The translations under genes were made by a program, and so were the position numbers. A model generated the notes under the pieces. The model did not search any database and was not told the DNA's origin. It saw nothing but the letters and a program-made list of their open reading frames with translations. Source: an uncultured Methanomicrobiales archaeon (lineage in GTDB: Archaea; Halobacteriota; Methanomicrobia; Methanomicrobiales; Methanospirillaceae). Taken from it: a stretch of 64,000 nt of DNA. The stretch is taken from contig CAVWXH010000016.1 of NCBI GenBank assembly GCA_963758915.1, positions 224,001-288,000 of the forward strand. Direction: 5' to 3'. Positions 8,678-25,955 of the stretch are shown piece by piece (positions within the stretch are counted from its first letter, which is position 1; each line of letters begins with the position of its first letter).

Positions 8678-10055
8678 TCACGTACGGGTCCTGCACCTTC
8701 CAACGAAATGCCTGAACATTGCGATTCCCGGCACCGGGTGCAGGTGTGTGTAACTACCCAGGGTCTGTCCAGTCACAGCACCGTCATACATTCCGTCAAT
8801 CCCGGTCCCACGGGTGAGCCTGTATGCGTAATTGGTTTCAGGTGCCAGGCAGACATCGGAGTAATGAAACTCATGGCCTCTGAAACTCCCTGCCCCGAGC
8901 GGGCAGTCTGCCCTGCTCTCCCCCTCTACGTAACTGACTACACGGCGCGCGGGCATCCGCGTTTCACCCGTAAAAACACCTGCCATTTCATATACCCGTT
9001 CTTGTTTATGGCCCTGCCATCCTTCCATCAGGCGTATCCGTTCTGTCAGGTACATCAGCCCGCCGCACTCCGCATAGATCGGCACGCCGTTCCCTGATTG
9101 TTCACGGATCGCCTCCCGCATCCGGGTGTTTGATTCAAGCCCGGGGAGAAATAATTCGGGGTAGCCCCCTCCGATTATATAGCCCTCTGCATCGGGTAAC
9201 CGATCCCTGACAGGGCTGAATGGTATCACATCGGCCCCAAGTGCCGGCAGGACATCAAACAGGTCAGAATAATAAAAATTGAACGCTTCGTCACGGGCAA
9301 CAGCGATCCTGGTATCTGTTTCATGTTCTTTTGGAAAGAGTGGCGCCCCTTTCGGCACATCCGGGATATCAGCTGCAATGCTGGTGAACGCATCGAGTGA
9401 TACATGCTCTCCAATCAGTCCGGTTACCCTGGCTATTCTCTTTTCAAATTCACTGCTGCCCTGCCGTTCTATGAAGGGCACCAGGCCGAGATGCCGCATG
9501 GTAAGTTCCATCTCTTCCATACGTGGAATTGCACCAATAACCGGGACATTGCAATAATGCTCAATTGCAGAGGTTGCCTTATCCGAATGTTTTACGCCCA
9601 TGACATTGTTGAGAATCACTCCCTTAATCTGTATATCAGGAGAAAATGCCTGGAAACCCTTAACGACGGCTGCAGCGCTCCTGGTAATGCTCCGGGCACT
9701 GATTACGAGCACAACAGGCAGGTCAAGGGCACGTGCGATCGCTTCAGTACTTCCAACATCTGTAAGTGCCTCAGCGCCTTCGAACAAGCCCCGCACTCCT
9801 TCCACCAGGGCAAAATCAGCACCCTGGCAGCCATGGGTGAATACCCGTGATATCTCTGAAGGGGACATGACAAAACTGTCAAGGTTCCGGCATGGCCGTC
9901 CTGTGACGCCCGTGAGATACGATGGATCGATGTAGTCCATCCCCGCCTTGAAGGTCTGTACCTGTCATCCTGCGGGAAAGAAGCGATGAAAGTGCAAGAG
10001 AAATACTAGTCTTTCCACAACCTGACCTGTCACCTGATATCAGGACAGCTTTCAT
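8678..10055 (-). CDS. cfbB: Ni-sirohydrochlorin a,c-diamide synthase; one extra base near 9962 splits the frame
   Basis: N-terminus MKAVLISGDRSGCGKT from ATG 10055 joins VQTFKAGMDYIDP if one G is removed; EGVRGLFEG, RHLGL, AECGGLMYL, GHEFHYS; lies in the cfb cluster. Confidence 0.9.
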
Positions 10056-11116
10056 GCGAGGCTCCGGAGGACTGCCCCGAACTCACTCTCTACCACGTGC
10101 CGCACCCCGAGTGTTTTCGGATGAAGGTCAATTTCAACAACGACAAACTGGTGGCCGATCTCTTTTAAGGGTGCGACCTGTCGTGGGCCGTTTGTAATAG
10201 AATAACAGCAGATACCTTCTGTATACTCAGGTGGAATCGCATGGGGGACTCCTGCGAGAAGTGCGAAGTCCGGGTCAATTTCCCTGATCCGTTTTCCCAG
10301 CGCCTCCCCGTTTGCACCATATTCATCAAGTGCCCCGATAGTTTCCAGGGGGACTGAGGCATCAGAAAATGCTTTCCTGATTATTCCGGCATCACGCCGT
10401 ACCTTGGGAAGTCCGCGTTCTTCGAGGTTGGCGATGTAGTTGATATCCGCACCAGGACAGACCTCGTGGAGGGCTATCAGTTCATCGGCGAACATGTATG
10501 CGGTCTCTTTTTTCGCGTTCATCACTGCCACGCCCCGTTCACCCATTTTAATACGATTAAGGAGATCGACGGCAACTTTGTGCTTGAGGTCTCCGCGTGA
10601 TGGCTCGATATATGACTGGCTTGCGGCTCCCCTGAGGCGTTCCACCTCGTTCGCTTTTGAAAGTACGTATTTCTGGCGGTCGAGTTCTTCCGGACTGATC
10701 CAACCAGCTTCTGCCGCAGGGACCAGTGTGGCAATCACCCCGTCAATATTTTCAGGATACCCGGCATGGATGTCTACGACAATTGTCGGGGTCGTGATCC
10801 CTGAATCATCCACCGCTGATAACAGGTCTTCACCAATAATCATGGATACACAGGTGCCTACCACGGCCATTCTGTCAGGAGAAAATTCCCTTTCTGCATA
10901 CTGCAGCGCGGTAACCAGCGGGTCATGTCCACCGAAAATAAATTCGTTATCAGCCAGGGAAGTAGTCAGCACCCGTAAACCGTCCTCTTCGAGGAGACGG
11001 GCGTGCTTGAAGGAACAACCCGAAGGACCGTGCAGGATGGCGACATCCACTTCAAGGTCCCTTGCAGTATAAAGCGCGGCAACAATCGAACTCGGCCTTG
11101 GCTGCATGTATTTCAT
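10052..11116 (-). CDS. cfbD: Ni-sirohydrochlorin a,c-diamide reductive cyclase catalytic subunit
   Basis: QPRPSSIVAALYT, HGPSGCSFKHARLLEEDG, GTCVSMIIGED, EIDLHPKTLG. Confidence 0.95.
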   Translation of the reverse strand: MKYMQPRPSSIVAALYTARDLEVDVAILHGPSGCSFKHARLLEEDGLRVLTTSLADNEFIFGGHDPLVTALQYAEREFSPDRMAVVGTCVSMIIGEDLLSAVDDSGITTPTIVVDIHAGYPENIDGVIATLVPAAEAGWISPEELDRQKYVLSKANEVERLRGAASQSYIEPSRGDLKHKVAVDLLNRIKMGERGVAVMNAKKETAYMFADELIALHEVCPGADINYIANLEERGLPKVRRDAGIIRKAFSDASVPLETIGALDEYGANGEALGKRIREIDPDFALLAGVPHAIPPEYTEGICCYSITNGPRQVAPLKEIGHQFVVVEIDLHPKTLGVRHVVESEFGAVLRSLA

Positions 11117-11120
11117 CCTG

Positions 11121-12341
11121 TTATCTCCACGATTTAACTGCGAGTACCACGCACGCATCCTCCGGGGTTGCGAGTGCAGCGGACTTCCCCTCACAAAAGG
11201 TACCTGTGTAGGTAATCCTGTTTGTTTCCAGATATCTGGTTAGAGAAGATGCCATATACTCGTTCCTGTACTGTTCTCCGACAATAACAACCCGGCATGG
11301 CCTGACATTTTCTATTGTGCGGATAATCTCTTCAGGAAGGAATCCTTCACATACTGCGTGGGCCTCCTGACCGATGACCAGTACCAGGTCATCTTTACCG
11401 GAAACCGATCGTGCATACCGTGCGGCGTCTACTGTGGTATCCCTTGTTGTCCCACTGTTTGCATTGTCAATAACAAAATGCCCCTGCTCTGTTGTGACCG
11501 CCATTCTCCCTGGCAATGCAGTAAAATTCCGGAGTGAGACGGGATCGAAACCAAGCATACAGCCTGCTGCTGCAGCAACCATCAGTGGTGTTTTGTAACC
11601 GGCAAGTTCGAAGAGCGTGTTTTCAAACGATCCACTCACACCATTATAAGAATAATCACACCGGTCCCCGGATATCCGGACTATCTCATCCGCATGAACC
11701 ACGTCTGCACGTGATAAATAAACTCCCGGGGCAACAAGGAGACGCCGTGCATGTGCTGAAGAATCCATTTTGATGGCAAGTGCAGATTTCTTCCCGGCAG
11801 CGCACCGGTAATCAAGGGCTGAAGTAATTATTGCAAGGTCCCCGGCACCGGTAACCCCCAGCGACTCTTCCGCAACGAGCCAGCCTCCCTGCTTTCTTGC
11901 GGCAGCAACCACGGAGATCAGGGAGGCCGGTGTGATACTGCGCCTGAAAAGTTTTGCCTGTTCCGGGTAACGGTATGTCCCCCCCGAAGTATGGAGGATA
12001 CCGCATCCAGGCAGTATATGTGCTATTGCATGGGCTGTTGTTGTTTTTCCCTGTGCCCCTGTCAACTCGATCATGGGCTGAGGCAATTCGTCCCCGAGAA
12101 TCCATTTTACTGCTTCATGATGAGTGATCCGGGGGGTGCTCCGGTATTGTTGAAGGATTGGATGATCGGGGTTGAGATGCACGGGGACTATCAATCTGTC
12201 GTAGGAATTCCCCCCATGTGTTGAACTATCCCCTGCTGGCCCCCGGTAAACATCTACCATATCCACGTGATGCCCGGCGGCTGTCAGGGCATTGCCTATT
12301 TCTTTACCACCATGGATGGTATCGAGGACAAGGAGGTCCAT
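11121..12341 (-). CDS. cfbE: coenzyme F430 synthase
   Basis: LDTIHGG, PVHL, ITHH, TGAQGKTTT, ESLG, Mur-ligase-like GRM..DNANSG, VKSWR end. Confidence 0.92.
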   Translation of the reverse strand: MDLLVLDTIHGGKEIGNALTAAGHHVDMVDVYRGPAGDSSTHGGNSYDRLIVPVHLNPDHPILQQYRSTPRITHHEAVKWILGDELPQPMIELTGAQGKTTTAHAIAHILPGCGILHTSGGTYRYPEQAKLFRRSITPASLISVVAAARKQGGWLVAEESLGVTGAGDLAIITSALDYRCAAGKKSALAIKMDSSAHARRLLVAPGVYLSRADVVHADEIVRISGDRCDYSYNGVSGSFENTLFELAGYKTPLMVAAAAGCMLGFDPVSLRNFTALPGRMAVTTEQGHFVIDNANSGTTRDTTVDAARYARSVSGKDDLVLVIGQEAHAVCEGFLPEEIIRTIENVRPCRVVIVGEQYRNEYMASSLTRYLETNRITYTGTFCEGKSAALATPEDACVVLAVKSWR

Positions 12342-12750: not shown

Positions 12751-13159
12751 ATAGTAAATACTGGTGTGGCGAGTCTTAAAATTGTTACCAAATTATCCTT
12801 ACTTCCAATATTTGCTATATTACTCCCTTTCTTTGTAAAATACGGAAAATAATTCACTTGTCACAGGATAAAAAAACCATGTGGTTCGAAGGGATGACTT
12901 CATAACCGGTAACCAAACAGCCAAAACAGGAGTTAATGAGCATGGTTAGTGCCCGGATTATTGGGTTCACACCCTGGTGATACGGTGAAAAAATCCGGTC
13001 AACGCTTTTTAGTCTCAAATTCAAAGCAAATTTTAAAATTAACCATGATTTTCAGTATTATATTGTTATGAGTACAATAGTTTTGTTCTTTGTGAAACAA
13101 CTCCGGTTGACATCACGCCAAAAGTAATTTTGCCTGTGACTTTCAATTTATATGAATCC

Positions 13160-14296
13160 ATGATGGAGCACTTTGAGAGATTCGGACTTCTGATAAATAA
13201 CCAGGTGGTGCGGACACCCGTCGCTATAGCTTCTATGGCAGGATATGTCGATGCGGAGTACGTGCGTGCCCGTGAGAAGCACATCGGTCTGGCATTTATC
13301 GGAGGGTACTCCATCGATGAACCGGCAATGAGGGCAAGTGTGCTGATGGCTTCGGGAGGGAGGGAGGAATTCCTTCGAGAGGATATGATTTCCGAACTGC
13401 ACAGCCAGGTCTCCCGCATGGCCGGAAGTGATGTTGTACTCGGGATCAACATGAGAGGATGTTCTCCCGCAGCCTTTACCACGGTCGCTGAAGAGTTTGG
13501 TGATGGTGTGGTCTATGAAATTGATGCCCATTGCCGCCAGCTACCCATGGTAGAGGCGGGGTCCGGTGAATATTACCTTAAAAACCCTGCAAAGCTTACC
13601 GACATAGTTACAACACTTAAAAAGTCTGGTGTAACTGTTTCTGTTAAAATCCGGGCAGGCGTCGCCACTGATGACCGCGCACTGGCGAAGGCCCTGTGGA
13701 AAGCAGGGGCGGACATTCTTCATGTTGACCTGATGGATTTTGGGTACCTTAAACTTAAGCAAATCAGGAACAGCTGCCCTGTCCTTTTAATTGCAAATAA
13801 CTCGCTGAATACGTTTGACCGCGTAAAGGACATGTTTGCTCATGGTGCAGACATGGTCTCGCTCGCAAGAAAATCAGATGAACGGACATTATCCGGGCTC
13901 GATGCGGCTATTACAAGGTATACCGATGAGCAGGGGTGGTACAATGCGCCAAAACAACTCTGCCGTGGCGGGGATATAAGGGCACTTACCTTCTGCTGTA
14001 TGCCCGTGAAAAGCTGCCCGTTAATTCCCACGCTTGATAGTCTCGGTATAAAGCGGGATGAATATATCAGGCTGAAGGAGGAATCCGTTCTGGGTACTCC
14101 TCTTGAGGCGGGAAAAAATACCTGTTTCGGAAGCCTTGCATGGTGCTGCAAGAACTCATCCCCCTGTATGTTCCGTGATATCACACTTCAACAGGCCGGG
14201 ATTCCCAGCAAGGAATATATGCGGTTGAAACGTCAGCTTTCTGAAAAGATAATTCATCATATCTACAATGACAGGGAAGGGGATGACGCCTGCTGA
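13160..14296 (+). CDS. methanogenesis marker protein 9 (Dus-like TIM barrel plus Cys-rich C-terminal domain)
   Basis: ASMAG, EIDAHCRQ, VSVKIR; duplicated LCRGGDIRALTFCC..CP and TCFGSLAWCCK..PC motifs. Confidence 0.85.
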   Translation: MMEHFERFGLLINNQVVRTPVAIASMAGYVDAEYVRAREKHIGLAFIGGYSIDEPAMRASVLMASGGREEFLREDMISELHSQVSRMAGSDVVLGINMRGCSPAAFTTVAEEFGDGVVYEIDAHCRQLPMVEAGSGEYYLKNPAKLTDIVTTLKKSGVTVSVKIRAGVATDDRALAKALWKAGADILHVDLMDFGYLKLKQIRNSCPVLLIANNSLNTFDRVKDMFAHGADMVSLARKSDERTLSGLDAAITRYTDEQGWYNAPKQLCRGGDIRALTFCCMPVKSCPLIPTLDSLGIKRDEYIRLKEESVLGTPLEAGKNTCFGSLAWCCKNSSPCMFRDITLQQAGIPSKEYMRLKRQLSEKIIHHIYNDREGDDAC

Positions 14297-18048: not shown

Positions 18049-19128
18049 CTATTTAGGTAAATGGACTACACTGAGCCCTTTATTATCCACGTTCGTCCTG
18101 ATTGCAATTTTCAGCCCCAGGGGGTGAAGCACTGATTCAACAAATTCATGACTCCGGTTTGTGATGATGGCAATTGCCGGACCAACCGAACTCATACCCA
18201 CAAACTCAAGCCCGGCATCACGAAGCTGGCTCATGATATGGTAGATGGCGAAACTATGATGTTCCACTTCTGCCCGTTTCGAGCCCCTGAAATCTATCTC
18301 CCATATCACATCACCAACTTTTTTAAGATCCCCGGATTCGATTGCAGGGACCATATCCATCATAATCATATAGGCTTTCAGTTCGCGGTCACGGTAGTCG
18401 AGCATTCTTGCCTTATTCATCAGGAGGTCAAATTCCTGGTCTCCTGCCGATGAGATATCTGTCGGTGGAATAACAATATACACGTGGCTCTCATCGGCAA
18501 ACGGGTGGTGATATATCAAAGAAAGTTCGTCGCCCATTACTGCCATGCCCCCGTGGACACTCACTGCGGGACCGACCCCTGTCTCAAACCCGGATGCGAT
18601 TCTTCCATCTGCGGTTTCTTCAACATAGTTGTAACCAACGAGTTTCCGGAGCTGGTCATCAGTCAGCGGGGACCCGACAGACACATTGAGTGCTTTTGCA
18701 AGTGCAATCATTACCGTACTGGTTGATCCGAGTCCTACATGCTTATGCTCATGGTCCCGTGCCCTGATGCGGAATCCTCCGGTATACCCAATGGTCTTCC
18801 GGAACACACTGACAAAATGCCGGATCAATGCTGCACGGGAGTAATCTATCTCAAGGCCTTCCCGGGTGCACTCAACTGAAACAGTACAGTATACCTGGAT
18901 TGCAAAACCGATCCCTCCTCCCCCCGGGCGATCAGGAGAGAAACGGTTCATATCCAGCACTGTAAGGTGAATCCTTGCCGGTGCGTTAACGGTTATAACT
19001 TCATCCGCCGGTACAAGTGAATAGGACCCTTCATATCCCAGAGTCCTGATATTTTCGCCTGGAGAAAACGATGTAAATTCATACTCGACGAGGTCGAGGT
19101 CCCCGCCGCGTATCTTCATTATTGCCAT
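18049..19128 (-). CDS. GHMP-kinase-family protein, beta-RFAP synthase (MptG)-like
   Basis: APARIHLT, HVGLGSTS, GMSSVGP. Confidence 0.75.
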   Translation of the reverse strand: MAIMKIRGGDLDLVEYEFTSFSPGENIRTLGYEGSYSLVPADEVITVNAPARIHLTVLDMNRFSPDRPGGGGIGFAIQVYCTVSVECTREGLEIDYSRAALIRHFVSVFRKTIGYTGGFRIRARDHEHKHVGLGSTSTVMIALAKALNVSVGSPLTDDQLRKLVGYNYVEETADGRIASGFETGVGPAVSVHGGMAVMGDELSLIYHHPFADESHVYIVIPPTDISSAGDQEFDLLMNKARMLDYRDRELKAYMIMMDMVPAIESGDLKKVGDVIWEIDFRGSKRAEVEHHSFAIYHIMSQLRDAGLEFVGMSSVGPAIAIITNRSHEFVESVLHPLGLKIAIRTNVDNKGLSVVHLPK

Positions 19129-19152
19129 CCTGGAAATCACCTTTGTTTGCAG

Positions 19153-19703
19153 TTATCTGTCAAAGAATATGTTCTTTCCTGATCCTTTGAGTGGGATACC
19201 ATATACAGATGTACCTCCATTGAGCCACCCAAGGGCACGTGCGGCAACTCCGGCTGAATACATGATCCTGTTATCCACATTATGCACCTGGGCCGTCTTC
19301 ACGGCTGATCCGACCGCGATATCAAGATCTGAAATCCTGATAATGCAGTTAGGCCCGGCAAACGGAACACTGGCAGGTTCTTTTTGGGCGAATGCATCCT
19401 GTAAGTCAGTACAGGTTGGAAAACCACATCCCTGGCAATTGACACCCACAGCCACCGCTCCCCTGATACCGAAAAGGACACAGGCATCGCTTACGGCCAT
19501 GCATTTTCCATCCCTGATAAAAAACGGGACGGCATTTCGTTCACCAATGGCAACCATCTCGTCTGCGAGCTGCTTTAACTCCGTATCCGAGATTTTTTTA
19601 GTTTTAATTTCATCTACGCCCCGTGCTTTCTGGGCCGCCCTCGCCGGAGGACCATCAGGCCAGCCACCGTCCTGATTGCCTCAGTCTCTTCAGTCTGGGG
19701 TAT
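19153..19703 (-). pseudogene. DUF2148-type ferredoxin-domain protein, N-terminus disrupted
   Basis: NCQGCGFPTC, GSAVKTA...VDNRIMYSAG, KNIFFDR; the upstream AIRTVAGLM..AR(A)A(Q)KARG part is out of frame and has no ATG. Confidence 0.65.
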
Positions 19704-20727: not shown

Positions 20728-20889
20728 ATGATGGAAAAGCATGGTAGTCAGGTATGCAGGTATACCTCTGATCCCGCAGAGGGAGATCCGGATGCAGGAA
20801 TAAATCCAGGTACAGCATTTACATCACTTACTGGTACCTGGCATTGCCCGGTCTATGAATCCCCAAAAGAAAAATTTACCATGATGTAA
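20728..20889 (+). pseudogene. degenerate rubredoxin (2 of 4 Cys retained), absent from the ORF track
   Basis: MMEKHGSQVCRYTSDPAEGDPDAGINPGTAFTSLTGTWHCPVYESPKEKFTMM; GGTGA RBS upstream. Confidence 0.75.
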
Positions 20890-20903
20890 TGGGAAGTGCA
20901 ATA

Positions 20904-22096
20904 ATGGTTTTCAGAACTGTAACTCCGGACTGTTACTCAATTGCTGCGCTCGATTTTGATCGGCGACTTTTTGATGCTCTTATCCCATTACCTGATGGGA
21001 CAAGTTATAATGCATATCTGATCAGGGGGAGTCAGAAGACTGCACTTATTGACACGGTTGACCCCGCAAAAGAGCTGGAACTGGTATCTGATCTGATCCG
21101 TCATGGCGTGGATTCGATAGATTATGTGGTTATTAATCATGCTGAGCAGGACCATTCGGGGTCCCTGCCGATGGTCCTCGAGTTGTTTCCAGTCATCAAA
21201 AGTAGTGACTAATGAGAAGTGCAGGGACCTGCTAATCCATCACCTCGATCTGGAGGAAGACCGGTTTATTACTATTAAGGACCGGGAAACGCTCTCGCTT
21301 GGGAATAAAACACTCGAATTTATCATTGCACCGTGGGTCCACTGGCCTGAAACAATGCTCACCTATCTGAGGGAGGACCGTATCCTTTTTTCATGTGACC
21401 TGTTCGGTATTCATTATGCAACCAGTGACCTGTTCCTGAAAGATGAAAAGACCCTGTATACTGCTGCCAAGCGGTATTATGCAGAAATTATGATGCCTTT
21501 CCGGGCCAGCATCAAAGGGCATATGGAAAAAATCGGAGCACTGGATATTGAGATCATTGCGCCGAGCCACGGTCCTGTCCATAATAATCCAGGTTTTATT
21601 CTCAATGCGTATAATGAATGGATATCAGATTCGGTAAAGAATGAAGTTGTGATCCCCTATGTATCGATGCATGGCAGTACCGAAAAACATGGTGGACCAT
21701 CTGACCAATGCGTTAATTGAGCGGGGGATCGCGGTAAAACCCTTCGATATGACGGTTACCGATACCGGTAACCTTGCAATGTCGCTGGTGGATGCTGCGA
21801 CGGTGGTAATCGCTACCCCTACCGTTCTGTTCGGCCCTCACCCCCAGATTGTTTATGCAACCTACCTTGCGAATATGCTCCACCCCAAAGTAAAATTTGC
21901 ATCGATAATAGGTTCCTATGGCTGGGGTGGTAAGACAACTGATATTTTAAAAGCCATGATGACCCATATCAAACCCGAGCTGCTTGAACCGGTGCTTGTT
22001 CAGGGATTGCCGGGAGAAACCAGTACCAGGGGCCTCGACCGTCTTGCAGATGATATTGCACGGAAACATAAAGAAATCGGACTGCTACCACCATGA
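20904..22096 (+). CDS. fprA: flavodiiron protein FprA; two +1 frameshifts (near 21192 and 21689)
   Basis: GTSYNAYLI, NHAEQDHSG, HWPETM, SCDLFG.H, PSHG, flavodoxin part YVSMHGST and GSYGWGG, spread over three frames. Confidence 0.88.
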
Positions 22097-22441
22097 GTAA
22101 CGGTAGCAGCCATTCACATCTGCATCTATACCCCTGTTTTTTAATCAGGTCATGGAATTCCTGTCAGGATGTTCCCAAGGCCCCGCCCTGCTGAATCTGA
22201 TAGGTGTCAAAGATACCCCGGAAGGTAGTGCTGTTACCTAATCCGGAGGTGACCCGCCAGGAAATTTTCAGGGCAGAAATATAGTTGGAATGTAGATTAT
22301 TGCTTAATTCAAAGGCATAATTGAATAATTTCCCTCCAGAATACTGGCCAATATAATTCCCGCCTGGTACCACAGAAAATCAACTCTTTTTACTTTAACA
22401 TCAGAAAATTGAATAACCTCACAGTCCAACCTGTTATCCCA

Positions 22442-23254
22442 ATGAAGCAGATCGCCCTGTACGGAAAGGGTGGTATCGGCAAGTCCACCACATCGGCCAA
22501 CCTGTCAGCAGCACTGGCAGAGAAGGGACTCGATATTCTCCAGATTGGGTGTGATCCCAAGCGTGACAGCACACGAATGCTGATGCAGGGCAGGTTCATC
22601 CCTACGGTAATGGACCATGTAAGGAAAGAAGGCGATAATGACGTCAGACTTGAAGATATTATGTTCACGGGGTACCGGGGAGTACGGTGCGTCGAGGCAG
22701 GAGGGCCTGAACCCGGTGTAGGGTGTGCCGGACGTGGAATTATTGCCACCTTCCAGATCCTTGAACGCCTTGGTGCTCTGAAAGGGGACATTATTGTCTA
22801 CGATGTCCTTGGAGACGTGGTATGCGGTGGGTTTGCTATGCCGATGCGTGAAGGCTATGCGCAGGAGGTCTACCTTGTCACGTCGGGGGAACTCATGTCC
22901 TTATACGCTGCAAATAATATCTGCAAGGCTATCCAACGCCTGTCCCTGAGGGCGAAGAACCGGTGCCGCCTTGCAGGTGTTATTTGTAATTCAAAAAATA
23001 TGGAAAACGAAGAGGAACTCGTACTCGAATTTTCGAAACGGATCAACAGCCGGCTTATCCATTTCATTCCCCGTGACAGGACTGTCCAGCTGGCCGAACT
23101 TCATAAAAAAACCGTGATTGAATATGCACCCGGGTCTCCTCAGGCAGGGGTATACCGGTCACTTGCAGGGATTGTTGCGACGAATGAACAGTTTACAATT
23201 CCCAATCCGCTGGATACCGATGAGCTTGAATCCCTTGCCTTTGAGTATATCTAG
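22442..23254 (+). CDS. cfbC: nitrogenase iron-protein homolog (NifH/CfbC type)
   Basis: [49 protein letters not shown]; cfbC assignment inferred because cfbC is missing from the cfb cluster. Confidence 0.7.
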
Positions 23255-24287
23255 GACCGGCGGGTGCACCCTTACCGGGGCGCTTGCGGTCACCACCGGG
23301 ATTAAGGACTCAGTTACAATAATTCATGGTCCTCCGGGTTGTGCGCATCATAATTTTTCTCTGCTTCATGCGACTATCCTTGATAATGACTGCCTGGTAA
23401 TCCCCAGCGTCATGTCTTCGGGGATGTCTGAACACGATGTGATATTCGGAGGCGAGGAAGCGCTAATGAGGACGATTAAGGAAGTGGCTTCCGGTGATCC
23501 TGGAATAATATTCGTACTTTCGACATGTATCACCGAGACGATTGGTGACGATGTTCTTGCGGTTACTGAGAATGCGGGAGTTCCTGTCTGCATGGTACCT
23601 ACCGGGGGATTTTTAGGAGGAGATTTTGAAAAAGGTTTTTCCAAAGCCCTCATCGCAGTTTCAAATCTTGCCCTGCCGGTGGTCATTATTCCTGAATGTT
23701 ACCAGAAAATTAAGGGCTCGGTTAATCTGATTGGAGAGAAAAACCTCGAATACGAGGTGGAACAAAACTTCTTGGAAGTTAAGCGCCTGGTTTCCCTGCT
23801 AAACCTTACAATCAATCTCCGTTTTGCCCATGATATCATCCGCTCCGATATTAACCGTCTTCCCCTCGCATCGGTGAATATTTTAAGAGAACCTGCACTG
23901 TCTGGGGTTGGTGATCACCTGCAGTCCATGTTCGGGACGCCGTATATCAGTTCATTTCCCCTGGGTATCAGCGGGACGCTGTCTTTTATCAGGAATGTCG
24001 CCGTCCGGTCAGGATTATGTCCGGATGATGCGTTAGAGAGTGAAAAGGAACGTCACAAGGAGATATTAGAAGGATTTTCAGACCTTCATGGCGCTCCGGT
24101 ACGGCTGATTATTCCGGCAGAGGGACCGGAATACCTGCTGATCAAGGAGATCTCCCGTGCAATCGGACTCAGGGAATCACCTGAAGGGACCATATTGCCG
24201 GTGCCTTACCCATTTCCGGTCGGTACAAGTGGTATGAAAAGGATGCTCCATCTTTGGAGGAGGACACTTACATGCCGGGCTGCTTAA
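23220..24287 (+). CDS. nitrogenase component-1-like protein (short NifD/NifE-like)
   Basis: GCTLTGA (C16), HGPPGC (C41), [23 protein letters not shown] (C103), VNLIGE; 355 aa. Confidence 0.85.
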
Positions 24288-25408
24288 ACCCTGTATGGCC
24301 ATGTGCGCTGACCGGGGCGGTTGCGGCATTATCTGGCTTCTCTGGTATAGCTGTCGTAATTCACGGCTCAAGTGGCTGTTATTTTTACCCGGCCACGTTG
24401 TTGCACAATGATCTCCACAGCACCTTTCTGGTCGAGCAGGAAGTGATCTTCGGTACGAGTGAACGTCTTGTAGAAGTCGTGAAGGAACTTTCCCGGACCT
24501 ACAAAAAAGTAGCAGTTGTCAATTCGTGTGTCCCTTCCATTCTTGGGGAGGATATCAGGGATATTCTGTCAGAATATAATATAATTTTTGTAGATCGCCC
24601 CGGATTTACCGGAGAATTCGAATCCGGCTATCTTAGTGCAGTGAAGGACCTTCCGGTTTGTGTCGGTCAGGGCACCGACAGGGTGAATATTGAAGGGATA
24701 AATCTCATCGACCCGTTCGTGCGTGGTAACCAGCGGGAGGCAGAACGCCTGCTGCAACTGATGGGGGTTTCTGCAGGTACAATATTCTGCCATGACTCGT
24801 ATGAGTCACTCAGTAGTACGGCCGGTTTTTCAGTCACGGTAAATCCAGACCTTTCTGCAGGAATAGGGCAAGAAATAGGCTCATTTCTAGGTCTTCCTGC
24901 AATAAGTAAAACGGCCTGCACTCTTGCAGACAGCTTTTGTAATGCAGAGACCCGCGGAATTGAAAAAGAGATCATACTTGTTGAAGAACGTATTACAAAA
25001 GCAGCAGATAAATACCTGAAACGATTTGATCCGCCCTCGGTAGCCATTTTTACTACCTGTTCATATTCCAGGTTTGCGGCGGCAACCTTACAGAAGTACC
25101 TTGATGCCGATATTCTCTACTGCGGGTCACGAAATGAACCCGGGAATTCATGTACCGCGGCTACGAAAGTTACTTCCCTGGCAATAATTGAGTCGGCGAT
25201 CCGTAAGCATGCTCCCGACCTGGTTATCGGGTCCACCTTTGAACGTTCGGTTGCAGGAAATGCGGCTTTTATCGGACTTACCCCTCCTATCCGTGGTGAG
25301 TTCCGGCTTTCATCGAAACCACTCGCCGGTACAGAAGGGGAACTGTCCTTCATGGAGGACATTCTGAACGCCTGCATGGACTTCCAACAGCGGAAACCCA
25401 TTAAATAG
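24272..25408 (+). CDS. nitrogenase component-1-like protein (short NifK/NifN-like)
   Basis: [11 protein letters not shown] (C11), HGSSGC (C36), EVIFGT, NSCVPSILGEDI (C86), PDLVIGSTFE; 378 aa. Confidence 0.85.
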   Translation: MPGCLNPVWPCALTGAVAALSGFSGIAVVIHGSSGCYFYPATLLHNDLHSTFLVEQEVIFGTSERLVEVVKELSRTYKKVAVVNSCVPSILGEDIRDILSEYNIIFVDRPGFTGEFESGYLSAVKDLPVCVGQGTDRVNIEGINLIDPFVRGNQREAERLLQLMGVSAGTIFCHDSYESLSSTAGFSVTVNPDLSAGIGQEIGSFLGLPAISKTACTLADSFCNAETRGIEKEIILVEERITKAADKYLKRFDPPSVAIFTTCSYSRFAAATLQKYLDADILYCGSRNEPGNSCTAATKVTSLAIIESAIRKHAPDLVIGSTFERSVAGNAAFIGLTPPIRGEFRLSSKPLAGTEGELSFMEDILNACMDFQQRKPIK

Positions 25409-25514: not shown

Positions 25515-25955
25515 TTGGCAGACGAGATGACCATGATTTCTAAAGCGGGATACTTTCAACAGAACGGGTATGCGGCACTCGATGACGAAGGAAAGCCAGA
25601 GCACATCGCTGAGTTGAATATCCACGGGACAAAATACGGGATTAGAATAGAAGAACTGAAAGAGGCACTCTATGGGCGCAACCCGGCACGGGTTGAGCGG
25701 GTGTTCCAGAACTGGCAGCAGTACCTGGGGGGCATCGCAGGGCTTGCCCGTATATCCCGTTCGGGAAAGGCATTGAATATTGAACTGGTCGAAGGGGGAA
25801 GATATACTGTCGCTCTTGACTCCCTGGTTTCAGCGCTTTCGCGGCGGGGTGTGTATGCATCGGTCGGAGAGATTCCGGAGACTGTTACTTCGTGGGACAT
25901 CAGTGGACGAAGAATCGCACAGGGTCAGCAGACAATTCCGGTACATGCTACATAA
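25515..25955 (+). CDS. hypothetical protein
   Basis: 146-aa ORF with protein-like composition and a TTTTATA promoter-like sequence upstream. Confidence 0.6.

Follow-up and report, generated by a model that had tools for sequence, protein, structure and literature searches.

A CfbC-type Fe protein gene in operon with two miniature nitrogenase-like subunits conserved across the Methanomicrobiales

What kind of enzyme is encoded by a methanogen operon in which the gene of a NifH-family Fe protein overlaps genes for two unusually small NifD- and NifK-like subunits? The operon occupies positions 22442 to 25408 of a 64,000-nucleotide stretch of DNA (the window) from an uncultured Methanomicrobiales archaeon of the Methanospirillaceae (assembly GCA_963758915.1, contig CAVWXH010000016.1, positions 224,001 to 288,000), and its two component-1 homologues are referred to here as NflD and NflK. 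An initial annotation, made from the sequence alone, had proposed a heteromeric, ATP-driven reductase that is distinct from the F430 biosynthesis protein CfbD. Judged by sequence comparison, NflDK is a genuine nitrogenase-like enzyme, conserved and so far uncharacterised, whose architecture is unusually minimal and whose Fe protein is shared, and the operon, cfbC-nflD-nflK, probably encodes a two-component ATP-dependent reductase driven by CfbC, in which an Fe-S cluster at the subunit interface would reduce an organic substrate directly.

All three genes lie on the plus strand. The first, cfbC (22442..23254), encodes an ATP-dependent Fe protein of the NifH family of 270 amino acids (aa) (PF00142, E 7.6e-110); the second, nflD (23220..24287), a miniature NifD/NifE-type subunit of 355 aa (PF00148, E 4.6e-53); and the third, nflK (24272..25408), a miniature NifK/NifN-type subunit of 378 aa (PF00148, E 4.1e-37). 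With 181 and 128.4 bits against a Pfam cut-off of 28.6, NflD and NflK are both members of the PF00148 superfamily; NflK covers the full profile and NflD covers only positions 1-267 of 399. The coordinates, the lengths of 355 and 378 aa and the overlaps of 35 nucleotides between cfbC and nflD (23220..23254) and 16 nucleotides between nflD and nflK (24272-24287) all agree with the open reading frame (ORF) data, and the motifs listed in the initial annotation are found in the translations: HGP.GC as HGPPGC at NflD 36-41, NP...C as NPVWPC at NflK 6-11 and HGS.GC as HGSSGC at NflK 31-36. The start codons of nflD and nflK agree with the N-termini of orthologues, and the junction between the cfbC-type gene and nflD is overlapping or abutting in all 20 loci examined from other genomes, suggesting that translation may be coupled across the overlaps. 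The presumed promoter region is the intergenic region 5' of cfbC (22097..22441). Exact matches to GGAA-N6-TTCC, which is assumed here to be the NrpR-type operator, are absent from the whole window (0 observed against approximately 2 expected by chance), too small a difference to be informative. Weak signs of transcription exist for cfbC and nflK in four metatranscriptome runs from 3 studies, in which uncovered parts of the stretch carry no information: short contigs identical to part of cfbC (22441-23060) occur in three runs and a short contig identical to part of nflK (24748-24968) in one.

The first gene was identified with the NCBIfam models, on which its product scores 416.8 bits for F430_CfbC (NF033200), above the cut-off of 402, and 387.5 bits for nifH (TIGR01287), below the cut-off of 394.35. 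The true NifH of a diazotrophic relative scores the opposite way, with 447.7 bits for nifH and 380.9 bits for CfbC. The gene is also the single strong PF00142 match in the window's genome, which is 94% complete and carries cfbD, so that what the initial annotation had called NifH is CfbC and the organism's only NifH homologue. Other F430 genes are grouped on the minus strand at 8678-12341, approximately 10 kb from cfbC-nflD-nflK: cfbB (8678-9940; 578.6 bits on the NCBIfam CfbB model, cut-off 560), cfbD (10052-11194; TIGR03282, 498.6 bits, cut-off 268.4) and cfbE (11121-12341; 319.3 bits on the NCBIfam CfbE model, cut-off 250). The gene of the F430 Fe protein is found at the head of the nflDK operon, apart from the gene of its known partner CfbD.

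The NifH-type genes of five further genomes show a similar arrangement. Three of the five possess a single copy and two possess an additional copy elsewhere, which scores as nitrogenase-type NifH at approximately 420 bits; the CfbC-type copy adjoins nflD in four, and the fifth is a genome without nflD (G053, discussed below). PF00148 matches in the window's genome are limited to NflD, NflK and CfbD, with no nifD, nifK, nifE or nifN found by this search at 94% completeness, and the genome therefore has no nitrogenase. A nifB homologue, which any methanogen should have, scores above its cut-off and is located on another contig, in keeping with the remark of the initial annotation that no nifB, nifE or nifN lies near the operon.

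To establish how well the putative cluster-site cysteines are kept, orthologues from 44 other genomes were aligned for NflD (47 rows) and from 39 for NflK (42 rows). NflD C16 and C41 are Cys in 46 of the 47 rows, the single miss being a gap, and C103 is Cys in all 47; NflK C4, C11, C36 and C86 are each Cys in 42 of 42. A column alignment of NflD, NflK and the window's CfbD with the NCBIfam-labelled NifD, NifE, NifK and NifN of one relative places NflD C16/C41/C103 and NflK C11/C36/C86 on the three P-cluster columns of each chain. NflD and NflK together possess the six P-cluster cysteines that characterise NifDK, VnfDK and AnfDK. The CfbD of the window has Ser, Cys and Cys in the same columns. 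Both claims of the initial annotation on this point, six cluster-site cysteines in the pair and only two of them in CfbD, are borne out, and a fourth invariant NflK cysteine, C4, can be added, which is matched in none of the aligned proteins (NifD, NifE, NifK, NifN and CfbD). The orthologue rows contain no further invariant cysteine in either protein. Overall identity across the order is 37-54%, against which the seven cysteines stand out together with many invariant Gly, His, Arg and Glu residues.

The site that holds the iron-molybdenum cofactor (FeMo-co) in nitrogenase is missing from the pair. At the cofactor-cysteine column of NifD and NifE there is a gap in both NflD and NflK, which accords with the earlier failure to see a FeMo-co ligand motif. 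Beyond the column of NflD L289, 66 residues follow in NflD compared with 141 in the relative's NifE and 206 in its NifD, and the C-terminal part of NflD comprises only one strand and two helices in an AlphaFold2 (AF2) model. This short part has no invariant His across the orthologues. Equivalents of the NifD ligands Cys275 and His442 are thus lacking, the Cys column being gapped and domain III much reduced.

NflD and NflK pass none of the curated NCBIfam cut-offs for NifD, NifE, NifK, NifN, CfbD, DPOR or COR. The best model for NflD is nifE (103.9 bits, cut-off 505.1), with nifD at 70.3 bits (cut-off 653.55), and the best for NflK is nifK (57.3 bits, cut-off 427.3), with nifN at 18.4 bits (cut-off 326.8). 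On the CfbD model NflD scores 48.8 and NflK 52.3 bits against a cut-off of 268.4, and among the DPOR/COR subunits (BchN, BchB, BchY and BchZ) the best score is 73.4 bits for BchB, with a cut-off of 490.35. Assignment to NifEN is opposed both by scores below the nifE and nifN cut-offs and by the gap at the L-cluster cysteine column of NifE, and assignment to MAR or Nfa (Groups IV-C and IV-A) by the lack of a cofactor Cys or conserved His and by the location of nifB on another contig. Among solved structures the best sequence match of NflD is NifEN (102 bits, 9i0g), followed by NifE and NifD at approximately 66-68 bits; the two MAR chains reach 57.5 and 34.7 bits, below all of the 150 best library representatives, which score at least 77.8 bits. 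The best match of NflK is NifK, with 49 bits. Foldseek comparison recovers the component-1 fold with query template-modelling scores (TMq) of 0.63-0.72 and top matches to NifE, MAR, BchB and NifD (E about 1e-17 to 1e-18; BchB TMq 0.69), and does not discriminate among the families.

A phylogenetic analysis was performed with FastTree on 152 rows, comprising 23 NflD and 22 NflK sequences, labelled NifD, NifK, NifE, NifN and CfbD, and 102 of 126 outside representatives, those shorter than 300 aa having been dropped; a quick IQ-TREE run used 65 of these rows. NflD forms one clade, with Shimodaira-Hasegawa (SH)-like support of 95-97 in FastTree and, in the SH-like approximate likelihood ratio test (SH-aLRT) of IQ-TREE, 92 on its own and 97 with one 342-aa sister. 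NflK likewise forms one clade (support 99-100). The D/E side of the tree contains NflD and the K/N side NflK (97 each, IQ-TREE). NifH-NifE-like fusion proteins and small bacterial nitrogenase-like (NFL) proteins share a group with NflD (98-99 SH-like in FastTree, 88-91 SH-aLRT in IQ-TREE), and this group is separate from the NifD/NifE clade (96-99). In trees containing labelled NifD, NifK, NifE, NifN and CfbD, the pair is found in a clade of its own. A lone 396-aa PF00148 gene from another family of the phylum was considered and set aside as not orthologous; neither a NifH nor a K partner adjoins it.

The nearest relatives of the pair on the tree are the NifH-NifE-like fusions with a NifN-like partner, which occur in Methanosarcina-type genomes and anaerobic bacteria, and the small bacterial NFL pairs, all of them as uncharacterised as NflDK. 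Such fusions are mentioned in a passage of PMC3464626. One example, from another family of the phylum (genome G386, locus L144 2446-5975), is a 745-aa fusion followed by a 431-aa NifN/BchB-like gene; unlike NflD, the fusions have a NifH domain of their own, which scores 270.6 bits on the CfbC model. The nearest bacterial relative, P0145, is a protein of 372 aa from Limnochordia/Bacillota metagenome-assembled genomes with 38% identity to NflD, and like NflD it has three cysteines, no cofactor cysteine and a conserved C-terminal WRR tail. A P0145-type H-D-K operon follows genes for TonB, an unknown protein, a Peripla_BP_2 binding protein and a FecCD permease on the same strand (locus L166 197-7352), and no ATP-binding cassette (ABC) ATPase gene was seen between the transporter genes and the operon on this one contig. 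The Peripla_BP_2/FecCD transporter family imports siderophores, haem or vitamin B12. By analogy, this neighbourhood gives a weak hint of a tetrapyrrole or metal chelate, from a single locus.

Published groupings offer a further comparison. Excerpts of PMC13474568 describe Groups IV-A and IV-C as having the cofactor Cys/His pair and a linked NifB, and Group IV-F as lacking P-cluster cysteines; the sequence features of NflDK speak against membership of all three, with which it was compared by description only. It fits a type described in part of Dos Santos et al. 2012 (PMC3464626) from Proteobacteria, Archaea, Firmicutes and Fibrobacteres, namely NifE/N-like pairs that have 3+3 cysteines and lack cofactor ligands, and the supplementary lists of that paper may include Methanomicrobiales genes. 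According to passages of PMC13474568 and 10.1101/2023.10.20.563283, methanogens hold further nitrogenase-like proteins of unknown function. The literature searched, which included few subscription papers, contained no description of the operon, its order-wide conservation or its coupling to cfbC, and no paper in which 'CfbC' and 'Methanomicrobiales' appear together; the available main text of PMC2686161, on signature genes of the Methanomicrobiales, does not mention nitrogenase.

The distribution of the pair is that of a core gene set of the whole order, near-universal in the Methanomicrobiales, a point not made in the initial annotation. At E<=1e-10, 149 of 151 Methanomicrobiales genomes match NflD, 148 with E<=1e-62; NflK is likewise matched in 149, with E<=1e-74 in 145 and with fragments or split frames in the other four. 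When 301 genomes were sampled from the phylum, matches of at least 228 bits fell exclusively inside the Methanomicrobiales, and no orthologue was found in the 253 genomes from other orders, where the best match is approximately 100 bits. The best 80 related loci are attributed to Methanomicrobiales, Methanoregulaceae, Methanoregula and Methanoculleus. A library of 1.84 billion representatives yields 41 proteins at E<=1e-30, many of them fragments, and scores beyond the NflD family itself fall to 155 bits.

Both nflD and nflK are absent from the same two of the 151 genomes. One of these is only 62% complete and is also without CfbD, so its lack of the pair is uninformative. The other, G053, is 99% complete and belongs to the window's own family; it has no nflDK and keeps exactly one CfbC-type and one CfbD-type gene, the latter being its only PF00148 gene. 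At its locus (contig C13, L038 1-3804), TrkH is followed by cfbC and then by a homologue of the window ORF at 25515-25955. This looks like a clean loss of nflDK, which makes G053 a natural knock-out lineage useful for comparison, and since cfbC and cfbD were kept, the pair is not needed for F430 synthesis.

Gene order around the pair is conserved. In each of 20 loci from other genomes a cfbC-type gene immediately precedes nflD, and in 15 of them nflD is immediately followed by nflK; in the remaining five, all from one genus, nflK is found a few kb away on the other strand.

Structure prediction is consistent with a heteromer. AF2 models of the single chains are confident, with a predicted local distance difference test (pLDDT) of 89.2 and a predicted template-modelling score (pTM) of 0.88 for NflD, and 91.9 and 0.91 for NflK. 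The predicted D-K complex reaches an interface score (ipSAE) of 0.84 compared with 0.10 for the best of three controls; 58 of 80 solved complexes attained the mark used, as did 2 of 110 mismatched pairs. The D-K prediction departs from this calibration in that its alignments were made for this analysis and that it included two riding 4Fe-4S ligands. Agreement between the runs covers at least 87% of contacts, and the partner pLDDT is at least 89. The confident interface comprises D11-16, D37-44, D103-104, K1-11, K32-36 and K86-87, with direct pairs D103-K86/87, D40-K11 and D38-K86. All seven invariant cysteines, including the six whose convergence the initial annotation had named as a check by complex prediction, fall inside this predicted interface. 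The high score of the complex may reflect likeness to solved NifDK and NifEN structures.

From these results a mechanism can be outlined. NflD and NflK would form a NifDK-like heteromer, presumably alpha2-beta2, whose seven cysteines (three from NflD, four from NflK) may hold either a P-cluster-like 8Fe cluster or two 4Fe-4S clusters; with seven cysteine ligands available, a P-type 8Fe cluster and two cubanes are both plausible. The CfbC dimer, with ATP, would deliver electrons to this cluster at the NflD-NflK interface. As the organism's only NifH homologue, CfbC must also serve CfbD, and it would thus act both in F430 synthesis and on NflDK. A parallel is NifH, which serves both NifDK and NifEN. 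Given the lack of a FeMo-co or L-cluster ligand and a third domain of approximately 66 residues, it is inferred that the interface cluster would pass its electrons straight to an organic substrate in an opened pocket, as in DPOR, COR and CfbD. The core of the initial annotation, a heteromeric ATP-driven reductase distinct from CfbD, is supported by the failure to pass any family cut-off, the kept cysteines, the predicted interface and the separate clade.

The known systems resemble this arrangement in different respects. CfbD shares with NflDK the Fe protein CfbC, encoded in the nflDK operon, as well as the lack of cofactor ligands and the restriction to methanogens, and because cofactor ligands are missing from both, an Fe-S cluster presumably reduces the substrate directly in each. 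However, CfbD is described in part of PMC13474568 as a homodimer with two cysteines per chain and one 4Fe-4S cluster, whereas NflDK is a predicted heteromer with 3+4 cysteines. DPOR (BchL/BchNB) and COR (BchX/BchYZ) are, like the proposed NflDK complex, of the heterotetramer type without FeMo-co ligands and give comparable fold scores (BchB), and in them, according to excerpts of PMC13474568, an inter-subunit cluster reduces the tetrapyrrole directly. Unlike DPOR, with 3 Cys and 1 Asp in the same excerpts, NflDK has seven cysteines, and its scores are far below the DPOR/COR cut-offs.

As to the substrate, the candidate favoured, though tentatively, is a tetrapyrrole from the sirohydrochlorin/F430 branch or else a related metal chelate, in view of the Fe protein shared with CfbD, the missing cofactor ligands and the hint from the bacterial transporter genes. 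Of the two roles suggested in the initial annotation, the shared CfbC and the missing cofactor ligands weakly favour tetrapyrrole/F430 chemistry, and no support was found in this analysis for the other, C-S cleavage. A more speculative form of the proposal, held to be doubtful, is that the shared CfbC drives a P-cluster-only 'minimal NifDK' by which a nickel or cobalt tetrapyrrole, such as F430, a precursor or a breakdown product, is reduced or re-reduced.

Several other explanations of the operon were weighed. NflDK could be a small-molecule reductase resembling MAR and ISR that cleaves C-S or other bonds in sulfur or nitrogen scavenging or in detoxification, as the characterised Group IV enzymes MAR and ISR do; many Group IV clusters adjoin sulfur genes (passages of PMC13753814 and PMC13474568). 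It has in common with MAR (MarBHDK) and Nfa the six P-cluster cysteines and the ATP-dependent H + DK architecture. On the other hand, excerpts of PMC13474568 ascribe to MAR and Nfa a cofactor Cys/His pair and a linked NifB, both of which are missing here, the MAR chains are larger (466 and 519 aa) and score below the 150 best library matches of NflD, conserved sulfur or nitrogen genes are absent from the vicinity of the operon in 26 loci, and near-universal retention across an order is unusual for scavenging, all of which makes this explanation unlikely. A role as a scaffold, carrier or maturase for a complex Fe-S cluster, such as the NifB product destined for the activation complex of methyl-coenzyme M reductase (MCR), with CfbC in the role of NifH, is regarded as less likely still. 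Its appeal lies in the resemblance to NifEN, which is likewise a pair of D/E-type and K/N-type paralogues, in which the same cysteine columns form the interface cluster site, whose Fe protein also serves a second component-1 protein, and which with NifE gives the best NCBIfam and solved-structure sequence matches of NflD. The genome also possesses nifB, and L-cluster-like clusters in the MCR activation complex and an essential NifB in methanogens are reported in parts of PMC12176620 and bioRxiv 10.1101/2023.10.20.563283. Yet the L-cluster cysteine of NifE and NifD is missing from NflD, as is most of domain III, and NflD is approximately 110 aa shorter than the relative's NifE and reaches 103.9 bits against a nifE cut-off of 505; the pair occurs in non-diazotrophs without nif context, nifB is unlinked to the operon, and all methanogens have NifB and activate MCR, whereas NflDK occurs in a single order and is lost in G053.

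That the proteins have no catalytic function and are a structural, regulatory or storage partner of CfbC, for instance buffering CfbC or Fe-S clusters, would agree with their dispensability in one genome and with a gene context free of substrate clues, but is improbable given that seven Cys and many Gly, His, Arg and Glu residues are invariant at 37-54% identity, which points to selection on a cluster site and pocket. A cryptic or minimal nitrogenase reducing N2 is very improbable: the NifH-, NifD- and NifK-type genes are in nif order and encode all six P-cluster cysteines, but the FeMo-co cysteine column and the histidine region of domain III are missing, nitrogenase NCBIfam scores are far below cut-off, and diazotrophic relatives carry a separate full nifHDKEN set besides the pair.

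The interpretation as a CfbC-driven reductase that acts directly on an organic substrate also has points against it. The NCBI CfbC model was perhaps trained on such sequences, in which case the score above its cut-off is partly circular, and the adjacency of cfbC and nflD could be inherited gene order instead of a sign of partnership. NflDK is dispensable in G053 and is not part of core F430 synthesis, and the gene context yields no clue to a substrate. Cluster type, stoichiometry and the docking of CfbC on NflDK are putative, and the metatranscriptome contigs could stem from DNA carry-over.

The gene context was surveyed by clustering the ORFs of 26 loci of approximately 17 kb each from six families. 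Recurrent upstream neighbours are FprA, desulfoferrodoxin, phosphoribulokinase and TrkH, and recurrent downstream neighbours are LeuB, LeuD and LeuC; in one family PyrG, GuaA, ArgD and HisC-like genes are found instead. These neighbours were rejected as a substrate clue and are read as inherited gene order. A link to a Co/Ni energy-coupling factor (ECF) transporter, suggested by one ORF cluster present in six loci (c11), was likewise rejected, as the cluster mixes unrelated ABC types: an ECF CbiQ-type system, an Opp/Dpp-type importer, an exporter-type ABC protein and a glycine-betaine system. The order FprA - desulfoferrodoxin - phosphoribulokinase - TrkH - cfbC - nflD - nflK recurs in several families (loci L145-L164), and its desulfoferrodoxin, phosphoribulokinase and TrkH genes are missing from the window between 14000 and 33500. 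Directly upstream of cfbC in the window lies an FprA-like flavodiiron gene (20889-22096, plus strand) split over three frames, the frame changing near 21190 and 21687 next to short runs of A; the gene is intact and in one frame in five close relatives (L063-L066, L070), and the split version is either a pseudogene or the result of assembly indel errors. Downstream of nflK, ORF146 (25515-25955, plus strand) encodes 146 aa without a Pfam or NCBIfam match and is syntenic only within the window's own family, being the ORF that directly follows cfbC in G053. Elsewhere in the window, an ORF at 13130-14296 (plus strand) has a methanogenesis marker 9 domain (TIGR03277, 164 bits) as well as an MJ0144-type part that resembles dihydrouridine synthase, and at 18049-19557 (minus strand) a gene of the beta-RFAP-synthase family, below curated cut-offs, adjoins a DUF2148 ferredoxin-domain gene; the latter two may be methanopterin-related.

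NflDK is thus kept by a whole order of major methane producers, including Methanoregula, Methanoculleus and their relatives in peat, sediments and digesters, and is tied to the F430 Fe protein by operon structure. Its very small scaffold has every P-cluster ligand and no cofactor site, raising the questions of whether a P-type cluster alone can be a catalytic centre, how one Fe protein chooses between two partners, and whether a tetrapyrrole is made or recycled in the Methanomicrobiales and not in other methanogens. Its small size makes it an attractive model for P-cluster assembly. If the proposal of a P-cluster-only protein acting on a nickel or cobalt tetrapyrrole were true, no known NifDK-type protein that can accommodate a P-cluster would be smaller than NflDK, and the Methanomicrobiales would have an order-specific cofactor variant or an undescribed step of cofactor repair or salvage.

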